A stretch of DNA of 64,000 nt from Actinomycetota bacterium. GTDB lineage: Bacteria; Actinomycetota; AC-67. Positions 1,754 through 57,964 of this stretch are shown here, piece after piece. Position 1 is the first letter of the stretch, and each line of letters starts with the position of its first letter. The stretch spans positions 8,174 to 72,173 of the forward strand of contig DASWHR010000027.1 of NCBI GenBank assembly GCA_036398095.1, written 5' to 3'. Under the pieces are notes generated by a model, which did no database searches, was not told the origin of the DNA, and worked only from the letters and a program-made list of their open reading frames with translations. A program made the translations under genes and the position numbers.

Positions 1754-2080
1754 CTAGGAGAGGATCTCGCGCAGGCCCTTCAAGGCCGTCGGGACCACCC
1801 GGTAGTAGGTCCAGGTACCGCGGCGCTCGCGCTCGAGCAACCCGGCCTCGGTCAGGACCCGCAGGTGGTGGGTGACGGTCGGCTGCGTCAGGCCGAGGGG
1901 AACGACAAGGTCGCAGGTGCAGGCCTCGCGACCCGGCTGGGCGGCGATGAGCGACAGCAGCCGCAGGCGGGCCGGATCGGCAATGACCTTGAAGGCGGCG
2001 GCCGCCCGTTCGGCGTCCCGTTTGGTCAGCGGGGAGTCGAGGACCGAGCAGCATTCCAGGACGGGCACAGAACTTTTCAC
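1754..2080 (-). CDS. arsR: ArsR/SmtB-family metalloregulator
   Basis: It has a winged-HTH and the canonical metal(loid)-binding ELCVCDL-type motif, here EACTCDLVVPL, plus an N-terminal CC pair. The listed ORF (to 2176) runs through the AT-rich intergenic region, so I trimmed it to the GTG at 2078-2080. The gene is divergent from a CadI/ArsI-like gene. Confidence 0.8.
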   Translation of the reverse strand: MKSSVPVLECCSVLDSPLTKRDAERAAAAFKVIADPARLRLLSLIAAQPGREACTCDLVVPLGLTQPTVTHHLRVLTEAGLLERERRGTWTYYRVVPTALKGLREILS

Positions 2081-2223
2081 CCCTGGATATTGACAGACAT
2101 CTATATGATGCGTCAAGATGCTGCCCAGAAGATATCGATGAAGGTCGATATAGATATCTGTGGATATCGATGCCAATGGATATTGATGTGGGTCGATGTG
2201 GATGGAAGTGGAGGGAGGACGTC
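2081..2223. promoter_or_regulatory. AT-rich divergent promoter/operator region between arsR and cadI-like genes
   Basis: About 45% GC in a ~70% GC background. It contains many GATAT/ATATC/GGATAT(T/C)GA repeats, including the inverted repeat TCGATAT-N12-ATATCGA around 2143-2170. A GGAGG RBS precedes the ATG at 2224. Confidence 0.6.
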
Positions 2224-2619
2224 ATGGGACGAGTGCAACTGGCCATCAACGTGCGCGACGTGGACGAGGCGATCGCGTTCTACTCGAAGCTGTTCGACAC
2301 CGAGCCGGCCAAGGTCAAGCCCGGCTACGCCAACTTCGCGATCGCGGACCCGCCGCTCAAGCTGGTCCTGATCCAAAACGAGGCTGCGCCCGGCACGCTG
2401 AATCATCTCGGAGTTGAGGTCGCCGGCCGCGACGAGGTCGCCGCCGCAACCAAGCGACTGTCCGCCAAGGGTCTCGCCACGGTCACCGAGCAAGGCGCCT
2501 GCTGCTACGCCGAGCAGGACAAGGTTTGGGTCACCGACCCGGGCGGCGCGTCCTGGGAGGTCTACACCGTCCTCAAGGACGCTGAGGTGATGTCCCCGTC
2601 GGGCACCGCCTGCTGCTGA
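2224..2619 (+). CDS. cadI: CadI/ArsI-family VOC (glyoxalase-fold) metalloprotein
   Basis: MGRVQLAINVRDVDEAIAFYSKLFDTEPAKVKPGYANFAIADPPLKLVLI...TEQGACCYAEQDKVWVTDPGGASWEVYTV is near-collinear with the mycobacterial CadI (Rv2641) sequence as I recall it and with ArsI C-As lyases. The vicinal Cys-Cys is conserved. An extra C-terminal SPSGTACC tail is present. I trimmed the listed 2170 start to the ATG at 2224, which follows a GGAGG. Confidence 0.8.
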   Translation: MGRVQLAINVRDVDEAIAFYSKLFDTEPAKVKPGYANFAIADPPLKLVLIQNEAAPGTLNHLGVEVAGRDEVAAATKRLSAKGLATVTEQGACCYAEQDKVWVTDPGGASWEVYTVLKDAEVMSPSGTACC

Positions 2620-2645: not shown

Positions 2646-3218
2646 ATGCCGGATCCCGCCATCGATGCCGTCCGCGCCGAAGCCGCGCGCGTGGTCGCGC
2701 TTGCTCGCTCGCTGACTCCCACCGACTGGAGCGCGCCGAGCCGCTGCGACGATTGGACCGTCGCCGATGTGATCGCCCATCTCGCGTGCGATTGTCAGCG
2801 GTTCACCGAGTGGCTGGCCGATGCCGAGCGGGGCGTGCTGGTCCCGCCGTTTCCGCCGGAGCAGTTCCGCGCCGACAACGCGATGATGCTCGAGCGCTTC
2901 ACCGGCGTGACCGGCCCGCGGCGCCTCGCCGCCTTCGAATCGGCCTTCGGCCGGTGGATCGAACGCGCCGCCGCGCTTGACCCGGCGACGCCGCAGCGGC
3001 ATCCGCGTGGAACCATCAGCGTCGGCTCGCAGCTGTTGCTTGCCGCCGGCGAGTTCGCGATCCACGGCTGGGACGTCGCCGACGCGCTCGGTCGAGATTG
3101 GGATCCGCCGGCCGCGCTGGTCGACATCGTGGCCGCCTGGACGTCGAACGTCGCGCCCGTCCGGAACGGTGACCCCTGGCATGCGCTGCTGAAGGCGAGC
3201 GGCCGCACGCCGATCTGA
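2646..3218 (+). CDS. DinB_2 / mycothiol-dependent maleylpyruvate-isomerase N-terminal-domain family protein (TIGR03083-like)
   Basis: N-terminal pattern ...DWSAPSRCDDWTVADVIAHLA... with a conserved His and about 190 aa, typical of the actinobacterial MDMPI/DinB_2 family. This is a family-level call only. Confidence 0.6.
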   Translation: MPDPAIDAVRAEAARVVALARSLTPTDWSAPSRCDDWTVADVIAHLACDCQRFTEWLADAERGVLVPPFPPEQFRADNAMMLERFTGVTGPRRLAAFESAFGRWIERAAALDPATPQRHPRGTISVGSQLLLAAGEFAIHGWDVADALGRDWDPPAALVDIVAAWTSNVAPVRNGDPWHALLKASGRTPI

Positions 3219-3227
3219 GCGGCGCGG

Positions 3228-4139
3228 TCAGCGCGTGATGGTGCTTCCGAGGAGGATTCCGTTGGCCCAGTAGGCGCCGGTTGGCCCGTCCGGAAGCAGG
3301 TCGTAGGTCGCGGATGCCTCGCGCCAAACGACATCGATGCCTTCGACGGTCGCGCCGTCCATCGGGTCCCCGGCCGCGAGCGCTCCGATGGGCCGGCCGC
3401 GGGCGTCGGGATGGGCGGATGCCGCGACCAGAACGCGGCCGTCGCTGAGCGTCAGGCGCAGCATCGGATGAGGCGATCCGACCGGACGCCGAACCGTCCG
3501 AAGGACCGGCGCGGCCACGCGGCGCCCGCGCGCGTCCATCGTCCATACAAGATCGCCGGAGCGGAGCGTGGTCACGTCGCGATCCCCCGACGGTGTCGCG
3601 ATCAGCGTGCCGGCCGCCAGGCAGATCGGACAGAACGCGTCGACGGGTCGCTGCGTCGCGACGTGAATCGAGCCGTTGCGGGCGATCGTGCCGTCGATCG
3701 CGGTCGCGTCGCCTTCGGTCCCCTCGTTAACGGTGAACCGCCAAGCGGCATCCGATGAGGTCAGCGCGATCACCCGGATTCGCTTGTGCACTTCGTAGAT
3801 GCGCATCGTCTGGTCGTCGGTGAGCGGCTCGCGATAGCCGAGCGACGCGCGGATCGCGGCGGCTTCCCTGGATCGTTCCGCGATTCGGTACCACGCGAGG
3901 CCGCGCTCGCGGCGCTCCTGCGGTCCGACGCCGACCGGATAATCGTCGGGATCGCAGAAGAAGATGTCGAAGCGCTCGTCCAGGGCGAGGCGCGCGTCCC
4001 ACTCGTCGGTGATCACGCCGCCGCTCGCCTGCGGCGAGGCCGACGGCGAAGGGGAGGCCGACGGCTCCGTGCGCTGTGGCCGATACGTGCAGGCGCCGGC
4101 AACCAGGGCCAGCAGCGCGACGAGCGCGATCCGCTTCAC
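3228..4139 (-). CDS. lipoprotein with C-terminal Hint (Hedgehog/intein-like) domain
   Basis: Lipobox VKRIALVALLALVAGAC, then a Ser/Pro-rich linker. The C-terminal block CPICLAAGTLIATPSGDRDVTTLRSGDLVW...LLPDGPTGAYWANGILLGST looks like a Hint module. The GTG start at 4139 overlaps the TGA of the upstream oxidoreductase (GTGA). Confidence 0.65.
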   Translation of the reverse strand: MKRIALVALLALVAGACTYRPQRTEPSASPSPSASPQASGGVITDEWDARLALDERFDIFFCDPDDYPVGVGPQERRERGLAWYRIAERSREAAAIRASLGYREPLTDDQTMRIYEVHKRIRVIALTSSDAAWRFTVNEGTEGDATAIDGTIARNGSIHVATQRPVDAFCPICLAAGTLIATPSGDRDVTTLRSGDLVWTMDARGRRVAAPVLRTVRRPVGSPHPMLRLTLSDGRVLVAASAHPDARGRPIGALAAGDPMDGATVEGIDVVWREASATYDLLPDGPTGAYWANGILLGSTITR

Positions 4140-5656
4140 GCTCCCAGCGCCACCCGCGCGGCGTTGCGGCCGGCTGTGCCCATCACGCCGCCGCCCGGCC
4201 GCGCTCCCGATCCGCACAGATACAGCCCCTCGATCGGTGTGCGGTAGTCGAAGCGCTCGCCGAAGGACTGCTCGGGCGTGATGGCGCCGTGAAAGATGTC
4301 ACCGCCGGTCAGCGCGAGCCGCTCTTCCAGGTCCGGCGCCGCGAGCACGTCCTCGGCCACGATCGCATCGCGAAGGTTCGGCGCGTAGGCCGCCAGCGCC
4401 GCCACCGCATTCTCGCGCGCTGCGGCGCGAACCAGGTCCCAATCCTCCGGAAGCGACGGCGCGTACTGCGTGAACGCGCTGAGCACGTGCCGGCCGGCCG
4501 GCGCCAGGGTCGGGTCGGTCGAGGACTGAAGAAAGACCTCCATGTACGGCCGCGGCGAGGGCATCGCGCCGCGAGCGTCCTCGCGCGCCTGCTGGATGTA
4601 TTCGATCGAAGGACAGATCTCGACCGTGCCGAAATGCTGCGACGCCGGCTCGGTTCCCGGCAGCATCGAAAACGACGGCAGCTCGCTCAGCGCCAGGTTC
4701 ACCTTCACCACCGCGCCCTCGTAGCGCCACGACGCGACCCGCTCGGCGAACGGCGACGGCAGCAGTCCCTCATCCAGCAAAGAACCGAACGTGACCGCCG
4801 GCGTCGCATTCGACAGCACCATCGGCGCTTCGACCAGCTTCCCGCCGGCAACCTCCACGCCTCGCACCCGCCCGCCGTCCACCACGATCCGCGCAACCGG
4901 CGACGAGACGCGGATGACCGCGCCCGCCTCACGCGCCGCCGCCGCGATCGCCTGCGTCACGCCGCCCATCCCGCCGCGCACGTACGCCCACGTCCCGTCC
5001 ATGCCGTTCAGCTCGCCGCCGATCGCGTGGAACGTCATGATCCAAGCGGTGCCGTCCTCCTCCGGCCCCAGCGCCGTCCCGATGATCCCTTGCCCGGCCA
5101 TCGGTCCTTGGATCTCGGGCGCGCCGAAGAACGAGCGCACCGTGCCGGCGCACGAGCCCGACACGCACATCCGGTACATCTCGTCTCCCAACGCGGCCCG
5201 CACGCCGTCCAGACCCGGCGGATCGGGCGACTCGACGAGCGGGCGGATCGCGGCGACCGCATCATCCCAGAATGCGCTCCAGCGCTTGTGTGCGTCCGCG
5301 TCGGCGGGACTGATCTTCGACAGCTCCGCGCGCGTGCGCTCGCCGTCGCGCCACACGAAGTAGTGGCGGCCGTCGGGCAGCGGCACGAACATCTGCGGAT
5401 CCTTCGGCGTGAACACCAGGCCGTGACGCGCCAGCTCCAGCTCGCGGTAGACGTCCGGCCGCAGCAGCGACAGCGAATACGACGCGGTCGAGATCCGGTA
5501 GCCCGGCGCGAGCTCTTCGGTGACGGCCGCGCCGCCGATCACGTCGCGCCGTTCCAACACCAGCACGCGCTTGCCGGCGCGCGCCAAGTAGGCGGCGGCG
5601 ACCAGTCCGTTGTGGCCGGCGCCGATCACGATCACGTCGTGTCGTTCGGCGATCAT
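4136..5656 (-). CDS. phytoene-desaturase (CrtI)-like FAD/NAD(P)-dependent oxidoreductase
   Basis: N-terminal Rossmann motif DVIVIGAGHNGLVAAAYLARAGKRVLVLE. About 500 aa with a C-terminal GSGARPGGGVMG motif typical of the CrtI/amine-oxidase fold. Confidence 0.75.
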   Translation of the reverse strand: MIAERHDVIVIGAGHNGLVAAAYLARAGKRVLVLERRDVIGGAAVTEELAPGYRISTASYSLSLLRPDVYRELELARHGLVFTPKDPQMFVPLPDGRHYFVWRDGERTRAELSKISPADADAHKRWSAFWDDAVAAIRPLVESPDPPGLDGVRAALGDEMYRMCVSGSCAGTVRSFFGAPEIQGPMAGQGIIGTALGPEEDGTAWIMTFHAIGGELNGMDGTWAYVRGGMGGVTQAIAAAAREAGAVIRVSSPVARIVVDGGRVRGVEVAGGKLVEAPMVLSNATPAVTFGSLLDEGLLPSPFAERVASWRYEGAVVKVNLALSELPSFSMLPGTEPASQHFGTVEICPSIEYIQQAREDARGAMPSPRPYMEVFLQSSTDPTLAPAGRHVLSAFTQYAPSLPEDWDLVRAAARENAVAALAAYAPNLRDAIVAEDVLAAPDLEERLALTGGDIFHGAITPEQSFGERFDYRTPIEGLYLCGSGARPGGGVMGTAGRNAARVALGA

Positions 5657-54431: not shown

Positions 54432-55319
54432 CTATGGGCGGAAGGCGGCCGTTTCTCGCACAAGTGCGTCCACCAGCGCGCCGGCGGCGGGCGGAAGCGT
54501 TCGCTCGTGGAGCCAGGCGATCACGTAGTCGAAGTCGGCGCTGGATCCCGCGCGGGCCAGCGGCACGGATCGAATATCCGGCGGCAGGCGGACCGAGTCG
54601 GGCAGCACGCCGACGCCCAGGCCCCGGCGTGCGAGCGACACGACCGCCTCGGGGGTCGCGTCGCGCAGCCGCACGCGCAGACGCAAACCGGCTCGCTCGG
54701 CAAGATGCGTTACGTGCCGCGTGACCATGAACTCGGGCGCCAGCATCAGCAGCGGCTCGGCGGCCAGCGCCCCGATCGGGACCGAACGCATTGACGCGAA
54801 GCGGTGCGCGGGCGGCACCGCCAGCACGACCCGCCATGTCGCAAGCTTGCGCGAGCGCATCCCGTCCTCCAACGCGCTGCCGGCCAACGTGGACAGGTCC
54901 ACTTCTCGGTCGTGCAGCGCGCGGATCGCCTCCTGCGCGTCCAACGACCGGATCTCCACCTCCACGTCCGGATGCGCGGCATTGAAACGTTCCAGTCCGC
55001 GGGCCAAGACTGCGATGCCGCCGGCGAGGGACGACAGGCGAATCCGTCCGGCCGCGCCGCGCGTGATCGCATCGGCCGCCTCCCGGGCACGATCCATCTC
55101 GGCCAGAACCCGCGAGGCGGCGGCCGCGATCTCGGTGCCGAGCGGCGTCGGCGCGGCGTGCCGCGGCAGCCGGTCGAAGAGCCTCCCGCCCAGCTCGTTC
55201 TCCAGTCGCGCGATGCGGCGCGACAGGGCCGGCTGCGCGACGCGCAGGTCGTCGGCTGCGGCCGAAAACGTCCCGGCATGCACGATTGCCCGGACGGCGG
55301 CCAGATCGTGGGTATCCAT
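54432..55319 (-). CDS. LysR-family transcriptional regulator
   Basis: N-terminal HTH LAAVRAIVHAGTFSAAADDLRVAQPALSRRIARLENELG plus a LysR substrate-binding domain. It is divergent from the citE-like gene. Confidence 0.85.
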   Translation of the reverse strand: MDTHDLAAVRAIVHAGTFSAAADDLRVAQPALSRRIARLENELGGRLFDRLPRHAAPTPLGTEIAAAASRVLAEMDRAREAADAITRGAAGRIRLSSLAGGIAVLARGLERFNAAHPDVEVEIRSLDAQEAIRALHDREVDLSTLAGSALEDGMRSRKLATWRVVLAVPPAHRFASMRSVPIGALAAEPLLMLAPEFMVTRHVTHLAERAGLRLRVRLRDATPEAVVSLARRGLGVGVLPDSVRLPPDIRSVPLARAGSSADFDYVIAWLHERTLPPAAGALVDALVRETAAFRP

Positions 55320-55437
55320 CCATGCAGAACCATAACAGAACGGCATGGTTTATGACTCGAATGGCTATTGGACAGCATGAAAGCGAGCGGGAGATACTGA
55401 CCCTCGGCACCCGATTCCTAACAGGAGGTCTCACCGA

Positions 55438-56379
55438 ATGCGCGCGCGCCGCTCATGCCTATCGGTCCCCGGCTCGTCGGCGAAGTTTCTCGCCAAGGCG
55501 GCCACGCTGGACGCCGACGAAGTTTTCTTTGACCTGGAAGACTCCGTCGCCCCGCTCGAAAAGGAGGCCGCGCGCGGCAACGTCGTGCAGGCGCTGAAGG
55601 AGCACGAGTACAAGGCGCCCACCAAGGTGCTCCGTGTCAACGGCGTCTACACACGCTGGTGCGCCAAGGATCTGATTGAGGTCGTCGAGAACGCCGGCGA
55701 GCAACTCGACTGCATCATGATTCCCAAGGTTGAAACCGTCGCCGACGTGAAGTTCGTGTCGAACATGCTTCGCATGATCGAACAGAACATGGGCTTCGAA
55801 AAGAAGATCGGCATCGAGGTGCAGATCGAAACCGCGCTGGGCCTGCTGAATCTTCCGCAGATCGCCGCCTGCGACGATCGCATCGAAGACCTGATCCTCG
55901 GTCCGGCCGACATGAGCGCCTCGCTGGGTCTGCCGACCGTCACGGCCGGCGAGCCGATCCCCGGCTACGAGAATCTCGATCACTTCCACTACGTGCTTAC
56001 GCACATCAACATCGCGGCGCGCGCCAACAACTTGCAGGCGATCGGCGGGCCGTACCTGCTCATCCGCGATCTGGATGGCTTTCGCGCCGCCGCGATGCGC
56101 GAGCGCGCGCTGGGCTACGACGGCAAGTGGGCGCTGCATCCCGACCAGGTCACCGTCCTCAACGAGGTCTTCGCGCCGACGCAAGACGAGTACGACAAGG
56201 CCGAATCGGTGCTCGAGCACTACAAGTACGTCACCGAGGTCGAGCGCAAGGGCGCCGTCATGTTCGGCAAGGAGATGATCGACGAAGCCAGCCGCAAGAT
56301 GGCCGAACAGTTCGCCGCACGCGGCCGCGCCGCCGGCATCAAGCGCGTCAAACAAGTAAAGGACTTCCTCGGCGGATGA
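55438..56379 (+). CDS. citE: HpcH/HpaI-family CitE-like acyl-CoA lyase (malyl-/citramalyl-CoA lyase type)
   Basis: FFDLEDSVAP, IMIPKVE, GKWALHPDQV are collinear with malyl-CoA / beta-methylmalyl-CoA lyase and mycobacterial CitE. Confidence 0.8.
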   Translation: MRARRSCLSVPGSSAKFLAKAATLDADEVFFDLEDSVAPLEKEAARGNVVQALKEHEYKAPTKVLRVNGVYTRWCAKDLIEVVENAGEQLDCIMIPKVETVADVKFVSNMLRMIEQNMGFEKKIGIEVQIETALGLLNLPQIAACDDRIEDLILGPADMSASLGLPTVTAGEPIPGYENLDHFHYVLTHINIAARANNLQAIGGPYLLIRDLDGFRAAAMRERALGYDGKWALHPDQVTVLNEVFAPTQDEYDKAESVLEHYKYVTEVERKGAVMFGKEMIDEASRKMAEQFAARGRAAGIKRVKQVKDFLGG

Positions 56380-56384
56380 AAGGT

Positions 56385-56684
56385 TTACCGAGCCGGTGCA
56401 GCCACGGCCGTCGTCGCGACGAGTCGCTCCCAGACGACGGCATCGTTCCCGGCGCCCGCGCTGTTCATCGCGTCGCGAACGAGGGATGTCGCTCGCGTGA
56501 TCGCGGGTTCGATGCCATCGCCTTCGACCGTGATCGCGATCTCGATCTCGCCGTCGGCCATGGAGCCGCCGATCGCCGGATCCGCCCTCGGAAGCGATGC
56601 CAAACTGGCCATGACTTCGTCCAGCCAGGCTTCGGCTCCCTCGGGTCGCAGGATCCGGCCCGCCAGCCCAATTTCGTATCTCAT
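56385..56684 (-). CDS. small hypothetical protein
   Basis: 99 aa, not Arg-rich. A GGGAG RBS lies 9 nt upstream. Convergent with citE. No homology recognised. Confidence 0.35.
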   Translation of the reverse strand: MRYEIGLAGRILRPEGAEAWLDEVMASLASLPRADPAIGGSMADGEIEIAITVEGDGIEPAITRATSLVRDAMNSAGAGNDAVVWERLVATTAVAAPAR

Positions 56685-56789
56685 GCGGCGGCTCCCAACA
56701 ATCGCATCGGCGGAACCATTGTTTCAGATTCGTCGCGTACCGCCAATCGGACGGCTGATCGTTTTCGAACCCGACAGAAGTGAGGTCCC

Positions 56790-57964
<1,175 letters not shown>

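Follow-up and report, generated by a model that had tools for sequence, protein, structure and literature searches.

The window analysed here, meaning the whole 64-kb stretch of DNA, contains two divergently oriented genes, an arsR with a GTG start at 2080 and an arsI/cadI-like gene with an ATG start at 2224, and positions 2081-2223 are exactly the 143-bp spacer between them (Table 1). With a GC content of 46.2% compared to 67.8% for the window, the spacer is indeed the AT-rich stretch within GC-rich DNA that a preliminary description of this sequence had reported. Only 0.08% of the 143-nt segments in the 64 kb are as AT-rich as this one. The lowest-GC segment of that length, at 2067-2209, has 42.7% GC, and the next lowest reaches 51%; the next-lowest stretches (51-53% GC) cluster at 55297-56839. 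Longer open reading frames across the spacer can be drawn for both genes, starting at a TTG at 2176 for arsR and at an ATG at 2170 for arsI. Both were ruled out due to a frame-breaking 16-bp indel in this stretch between the window and the closest relative, an Actinomycetota MAG locus referred to as L001. In addition, a Shine-Dalgarno sequence precedes the ATG at 2224, and the homologues of both proteins begin at the short positions. Since the indel breaks any reading frame, the spacer is regarded as non-coding.

Table 1. Genes, dyads (O1-O5) and predicted promoter elements at the arsR/arsI locus.
Feature	Position	Strand	Description	Basis
arsR	1754..2080	-	108-aa ArsR/SmtB-family repressor, GTG start at 2080	ORF, HTH_5, NF033788
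P_arsR extended -10	2087..2095	-	TGT-CAATAT; GTG start 6 nt downstream	inferred
O1	2087..2106		dyad ATATTGACAGACATCTATAT, 1 mismatch; overlaps P_arsR (-10, spacer) and P_arsI (-35, spacer)	
P_arsI -35	2090..2095	+	TTGACA, within O1	inferred
P_arsR -35	2111..2116	-	TTGACG, 18-nt spacer to CAATAT	sequence
P_arsI -10 candidate	2114..2119	+	CAAGAT, 18 nt past TTGACA	
O2	2132..2151		perfect dyad ATATCGATGAAGGTCGATAT	
O3	2148..2167		dyad ATATAGATATCTGTGGATAT, 2 mismatches; shares ATAT with O2 and with O4	
O4	2164..2183		dyad ATATCGATGCCAATGGATAT, 1 mismatch	
O5	2180..2199		dyad ATATTGATGTGGGTCGATGT, 1 mismatch; outer half degenerate	
Shine-Dalgarno region of arsI	2210..2219	+	GGAGGGAGGA; comparable GGAGG-type sequences 5' of arsI in relatives	sequence
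arsI/cadI-like VOC enzyme	2224..2619	+	131 aa	NF041414
DinB/MDMPI_N-family gene	2646..3218	+	27 nt past arsI	TIGR03083, PF11716

The DinB/MDMPI_N-family gene is probably located on one transcript with arsI. Its product is mycothiol-dependent-enzyme-like (TIGR03083), a gene in the equivalent position was found only in L001 (75% identity), and it may represent a lineage-specific addition to the arsI transcript. Beside it, on the reverse strand at 3228-4217, a 329-aa protein with an N-terminal lipoprotein-like segment and a short Hint_2 match (residues 198-243) is encoded. Downstream of arsR follow, likewise on the reverse strand, a signal-peptide-like protein without a Pfam or NCBIfam family match (997-1638) and a DEAD/DEAH-box helicase (2-994). 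This order of arsR, signal-peptide-like protein and helicase is kept in L001 (83% and 91% identity for the latter two) and in L002 (64% and 70%).

The identity of both flanking genes was as claimed before. The ArsR scored 48.2 bits with PF01022 (HTH_5, cutoff 22) and 87.8 bits with the ArsR/SmtB-family model NF033788 (cutoff 55). It is only a partial match to the Rv2640c-family equivalog model NF041413 (83.3 bits, curated cutoff 155) and is thus not an equivalog of Rv2640c, and with the R773-like model NF007528 it reached 45.5 bits against a cutoff of 97. The EACTCDL site noticed earlier occupies residues 52-58, and the four cysteines Cys10, Cys11, Cys54 and Cys56 are conserved in 67, 78, 81 and 81 of 81 homologues, respectively. 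The closest solved structure is that of the Corynebacterium glutamicum ArsR (CgArsR, PDB 6j0e, E=2.7e-19), in which a type-3 As(III) site is formed by Cys15-Cys16 and Cys55 as the third ligand (PMC11868830). While Cys15-Cys16 aligns with the ECC of the window ArsR (Cys10-Cys11), Cys55 aligns with Gly50, and the window ArsR instead has a CxC (Cys54/Cys56) at the R773-type position. The type-1 As(III) site of the R773 ArsR consists of Cys32, Cys34 and Cys37 within CVCDLC (PMC11868830). In a motif comparison, the CTCDLVV of the window ArsR retains the first two of these cysteines (present in 81 of 81 homologues), whereas the third is absent. Combining an N-terminal CC of the CgArsR type with a CxC of the R773 type, the sensor site therefore appears to be a hybrid. 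CadC binds its metal with Cys7/11/58/60, and the hybrid arrangement is presumably similar, in formal terms, to this alpha3N site. However, the N-terminal cysteine pair is vicinal instead of the CX3C of CadC, and CadC was only a weak PDB match (1u2w and 3f72, E ~1e-5 to 1e-6).

The product of the divergent gene scored 185.2 bits with the ArsI/CadI VOC model NF041414 (curated cutoff 116) and is approximately 65% identical to the ArsI of Thermomonospora curvata (TcArsI, PDB 5c4p/5d4f; E=1e-42). In TcArsI, Fe(II) is bound by Gln8, His65 and Glu117, and Cys98-Cys99 form the substrate site (PMC6138428). A lack of the Fe(II)-binding residues had been named beforehand as a reason to doubt an ArsI function, yet Q5, H61 and E112 as well as C93-C94 align with these TcArsI positions. 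The product of 2224..2619 is predicted to be a C-As lyase-type enzyme. The vicinal Cys-Cys that had been described is present (C93-C94), but the Cys-rich tail turned out to be merely a terminal Cys-Cys (C130-C131), retained by 32-36 of 40 homologues.

The spacer is rich in GATAT and ATATC units, as noted before, with six and three copies compared to 20 and 12 in the entire window. These repeats resolve into a single 20-bp dyad, ATATYGA-N6-TCRATAT (7-6-7), which occurs five times in the spacer (O1-O5). From O2 to O5 (2132-2199), the dyads follow a strict 16-bp register, in which the terminal ATAT of each dyad is shared with the next one. The strings named in the preliminary description were all recovered, i.e. 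TCGATAT-N12-ATATCGA at 2145 and GGATAT(T/C)GA at 2085, 2162 and 2178. However, the former does not hold up as a unit of its own, being a by-product of the overlapping dyads viewed from junction to junction. Outside the five sites, the 64-kb window contains no match to the dyad even at three mismatches, and shuffled sequences are expected to give 0.07 matches at two mismatches. The 16-bp array was detected by one repeat search but was not called by Tandem Repeats Finder, because its copies are only about 70% alike.

As the dyad pattern was derived from 2081-2223 itself, its recurrence in other genomes provides an independent test. When the ArsR protein was searched against 185,579 species genomes, 80 related loci (L001-L080) with 54-87% ArsR identity were obtained, which belong to Actinomycetota, Binatia, 'delta proteobacteria', Cyanobacteria and other groups. 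The dyad was found at up to two mismatches in 61 of these 80 loci. All but one of the 122 matches lie no more than 200 nt upstream of a homologue of arsR or arsI/cadI, a region that accounts for 5.1% of the sequence, and the 121 upstream matches include all perfect ones (n=32). Successive sites are most often offset by 16 nt (24 cases) or by 28-31 nt (25 cases); pairs with the 16-nt offset span phyla, and perfect pairs occur among cyanobacteria. An arsI/cadI-like gene is present in 49 loci, mostly divergent to arsR. In loci without it, the dyad still precedes arsR, and the divergent gene encodes ACR3 (SBF), a MIP aquaglyceroporin, ArsP, ArsC or PstS. Irrespective of the divergent gene, the dyad is thus present in front of homologous arsR genes in four or more phyla. 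This tracking of the regulator rather than of the divergent gene argues that this ArsR is the dyad-binding protein, and the phylogenetic footprint as a whole strongly supports the earlier proposal of an operator at 2081-2223. As for ArsR-type operators, the palindrome overlaps a predicted promoter, adjoins the regulator gene and is conserved together with the regulator.

A further example comes from a cultured organism, Leptolyngbya boryana, whose plasmid p1 carries three perfect dyads (offsets of 16 and 30 nt) between genes annotated as ArsR and ArsI/CadI. On this plasmid (411 kb; L081, 1-3330), arsI precedes genes for another ArsR, PstS and an ArsJ-associated GAPDH, and a heavy-metal P-type ATPase is convergent to the first arsR, so that the region resembles a composite arsenic/metal island.

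It was considered whether the related loci seemingly without the motif, from Streptomyces and several other actinobacteria, have no operator, but this was rejected, as they contain a variant dyad, CATAGA-N6-TCAATG or CATTGA-N6-TCTATG. Two to three copies of the variant were observed upstream of ArsR homologues in Streptomyces (L032, L036-L042, L056, L067 and L069) and in further loci (L045, L046, L050, L054, L055, L058 and L080). The recognition-helix motif of the Streptomyces ArsR proteins, QPTVTHHLRVL, is identical to that of the window ArsR, and that of L045 differs by one residue. With outer bases that vary in front of an identical recognition helix, the ATAT ends may not be read base-specifically. 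Since the variant dyads keep the core, the family-wide core would be ATnGA-N6-TCnAT.

A scan of positions 1700-2700 for consensus sigma-70 promoters and terminators found nothing. Both promoters were missed because their -10 hexamers match TATAAT at only three of six positions, and conservation between species served to predict their positions instead. In nearly all cases, TGTCAATAT forms the end of the arsR-proximal dyad; it equals an extended -10 element (TGn followed by CAATAT) and is conserved over 45 distinct promoter regions. At a spacer of 17-18 nt from CAATAT, 22 of these 45 regions show a TTG-type -35 element, and the block GCATCTTGAC at the -35 of P_arsR is conserved with L001. Among 59 loci examined, CAATAT is followed by an in-frame start codon after 6 nt in 17, after 7 nt in 11 and after 8 nt in two, which adds up to 30 loci; in a second class of loci, the gap is 11-14 nt and AAGGAGG is present. 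The GTG at 2080 in the window has no usable Shine-Dalgarno sequence in front of it. A distance of 6-8 nt between CAATAT and the start codon is what a leaderless mRNA requires, and the arsR of the window is therefore probably leaderless, as far as can be judged from the sequence.

Read on the opposite strand, the TGTCAATAT element becomes ATATTGACA, a perfect -35 element for the divergent direction. A hexamer with A in the second and T in the sixth position (CATAAT, CAATAT or CAAGAT) is found 17-18 nt past TTGACA in 36 of the 45 distinct regions. At other offsets, such hexamers mostly occur in 0-5 regions, with the exception of secondary peaks at offset 8 (12 regions), which falls within the dyad, and at offset 20 (13 regions). 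Two other candidates for the -10 element of arsI, TATGAT (2104-2109) and GATATT (2179-2184), were dropped in favor of CAAGAT with its conserved spacing of 17-18 nt from TTGACA. The transcription start of arsI is accordingly predicted near 2127 (about 2126-2128), and P_arsR and P_arsI appear to be interdigitated within 2087-2119, each -35 element overlapping the -10 element of the other promoter.

The five sites in the window exceed the maximum of four among the 80 related loci, most of which have one to three. L001 is the closest relative, with identities of 87% for ArsR, 79% for ArsI and 75% for the DinB-like protein, and it shares the flanking helicase and secreted-protein genes. Its spacer is 86% identical to that of the window and exactly one 16-bp unit shorter. 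The alignment gap falls at approximately 2172-2187, at the O4/O5 junction, although the exact placement within the repeat is arbitrary. Between the two spacers, the half-sites are conserved, whereas the 6-nt spacers vary, which indicates a unit-wise expansion. The array has thus probably grown through duplication of 16-bp units.

With regards to all of these data, we regard 2081-2223 as the putative bidirectional promoter-operator of a divergent arsR / arsI(-dinB-like) unit that would be repressed by ArsR and released by its ligand, a reading to which we assign a probability of roughly 80%. The conserved dyad, the Fe(II) residues and the arsenic-gene context are also in line with the compact metal(loid)-responsive unit that had been suggested at the outset. 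Ligand-free dimers of the adjacent ArsR would bind to each dyad. As O1 spans both the extended -10 element of P_arsR and the -35 element of P_arsI, a single dimer bound there would shut both promoters. O2-O5, located at about +5 to +73 of the predicted arsI transcript, would block binding, escape or elongation of the RNA polymerase for arsI only. Neighboring dyads are 16 bp apart, which corresponds to approximately 1.5 helical turns, so that successive dimers would sit on opposite faces of the DNA and could bind together, probably in a cooperative manner. A thiophilic ligand bound at Cys10/Cys11 and Cys54/Cys56 would then release the repressor, and both arsR and the C-As lyase-type enzyme would be induced.

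Not all of the five dyads need to take part in such a switch. O1 and one arsI-proximal dyad might suffice, and O3-O5 would then be neutral products of replication slippage. Five sites occur in none of the 80 relatives, most of which manage with one to three, the window and L001 are just one 16-bp unit apart, and degeneracy is highest in O3 and O5. However, 24 pairs with a 16-nt offset, the perfect cyanobacterial ones among them, are distributed across phyla, which argues that overlapping occupancy is selected and functional, and the half-sites are conserved against L001 while the 6-nt spacers vary. We therefore consider neutral slippage an unlikely explanation. It is far harder to see the repeats as something other than ArsR sites, such as RNA structure in the arsI 5' leader, sites for an unrelated protein, iterons or the scar of a mobile element. 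Short hairpins can be drawn from the dyads within the predicted leader, but the leader does not fold better than shuffled sequences (z = -1.3), and the dyad follows arsR genes instead of arsI transcripts or mobile elements. The conserved chromosomal synteny of helicase, secreted protein and arsR also speaks against iterons or a mobile element. No Rfam match was found. Taken together, this leaves these options with hardly any probability.

The nature of the ligand is a separate matter, as the same repressor and operator could instead respond to Cd(II), Pb(II) or Zn(II) via a CadC-like four-Cys alpha3N site, with the VOC protein being a cadmium-induced protein of the CadI type. The two-plus-two layout of the ArsR cysteines, with an N-terminal pair and a CxC in helix 3, resembles CadC, CadC structures (1u2w, 3f72) appear as weak PDB matches, NCBIfam does not separate ArsI from CadI, and the cadI of Mycobacterium tuberculosis was named after its induction by cadmium. 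By contrast, the genes adjoining this ArsR clade are arsenic genes, namely ACR3/SBF, LMWPc ArsC, ArsP_1, MIP, the ArsJ-associated GAPDH and PstS, and two of the neighbors, ArsI and ArsP, act on organoarsenicals. In the loci that were inspected closely, genes for cation transport turned up only beside the two plasmid-borne homologues, of which that of L. boryana adjoins a heavy-metal P-type ATPase and that of M. pallens a cation transporter. Furthermore, the ECC of the ArsR matches the As(III)-binding cysteines of CgArsR in the alignment, and the enzyme keeps every catalytic residue of ArsI at approximately 65% identity to TcArsI. In Nostoc, an arsI divergent to an arsR, which does not necessarily belong to this clade, is induced by As(III) and MAs(III) (PMC5258700). 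Due to the arsenic genes in the neighborhood and the induction in Nostoc, As(III) and MAs(III) are favored over cadmium. Judging from this gene context, As(III) and/or methylarsenite would be the most probable ligand, with a Cd-type cross-induction being possible, and a switch dedicated to cadmium, lead or zinc seems improbable.

The individual features could also be joined into one wider picture, in which this ArsR represents an uncharacterised cross-phylum subfamily with a hybrid four-Cys sensor, an operator code of its own (ATATYGA-N6-TCRATAT), an array tuned by slippage, interdigitated promoters and a leaderless arsR. The ATAT ends are self-complementary, and dyads can thus overlap at a 16-bp pitch. 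If this picture were true, dimers would load onto alternating faces of the DNA, and slippage by 16 bp would tune how tightly arsI is repressed. As a package, it is tentative and we would rather doubt that all of its parts apply.

For comparison with known systems, classical operators of the ArsR/SmtB family are 12-2-12 inverted repeats (SmtB, CzrA, NmtR), several sites per promoter are common, and CmtR binds to multiple sites cooperatively. The AT-rich imperfect palindrome overlapping a promoter is a feature shared with the window, and so would be autoregulation and derepression by a ligand. However, the dyad in the window is shorter, with 20 bp (7-6-7) and the core ATnGA-N6-TCnAT compared to the 26-bp 12-2-12 consensus of the SmtB/CzrA type, and its copies are set at a constant pitch of 16 bp with an overlap of 4 bp and number up to four in a row. 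The Rv2640c - cadI (Rv2641) pair of M. tuberculosis has the same divergent arsR/cadI layout. In the literature searched, no study on the operator, ligand or function of Rv2640c was found.

CgArsR (ArsR1/ArsR2, with divergent ars operons) resembles the window ArsR in its N-terminal ECC and in its actinobacterial host, and in C. glutamicum a single ArsR controls divergent transcripts (PMC4562236). A unit of arsR next to arsI has already been described in Actinobacteria (PMC6514093), and the arsR-arsI pair all1103/alr1104 of Nostoc sp. PCC 7120 is divergent like the one in the window. The arsI-linked ArsR proteins of Rhodococcus have a C-terminal MAs(III) site, Cys101-Cys102 (PMC6514093), whereas the window ArsR is devoid of C-terminal cysteines. 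An operator for the arsR-arsI pairs of Actinobacteria or Nostoc or for this ArsR clade was not found in the searchable literature, and a literature search for an ArsR with GTCAATAT gave nothing relevant.

Overall, the locus appears to be a typical derepression switch of the ArsR family acting on an ArsI-type enzyme, which is standard and does not involve a new principle. What is added here, at the level of prediction, is the operator consensus and its conservation across phyla, a promoter map with a probably leaderless arsR, and an unusually long overlapping array. A testable operator consensus and a map of the promoters thereby become available for the ArsR clade that is linked to arsI/cadI in Actinomycetota, Cyanobacteria, Binatia and deltaproteobacterial lineages, and the dyad consensus can be used for the prediction of regulons within this clade. 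It can also be examined whether the sensor site of CC and CxC tells As(III), MAs(III) and Cd(II) apart. The graded operator numbers could possibly guide the design of biosensors for arsenicals and organoarsenicals.

Finally, metagenomes were scanned by the motif alone, with a three-junction DNA pattern aimed at larger arrays. Among the matches listed, at least 115 of at least 119 fell on AT-rich contigs that lack homologues of arsR and arsI and in several cases carry the pattern in tandem, and four fell on high-GC contigs, each with dyads beside an ArsR-family gene. In these four contigs (L119, L139, L159 and L166), two perfect, overlapping dyads at a 16-nt offset are located directly upstream of the ArsR-family gene, whose product is more distant from the window ArsR (36-45% identity). 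L139 may hold a small regulon, as it has another two perfect dyads at distances of 0.4 and 2 kb.
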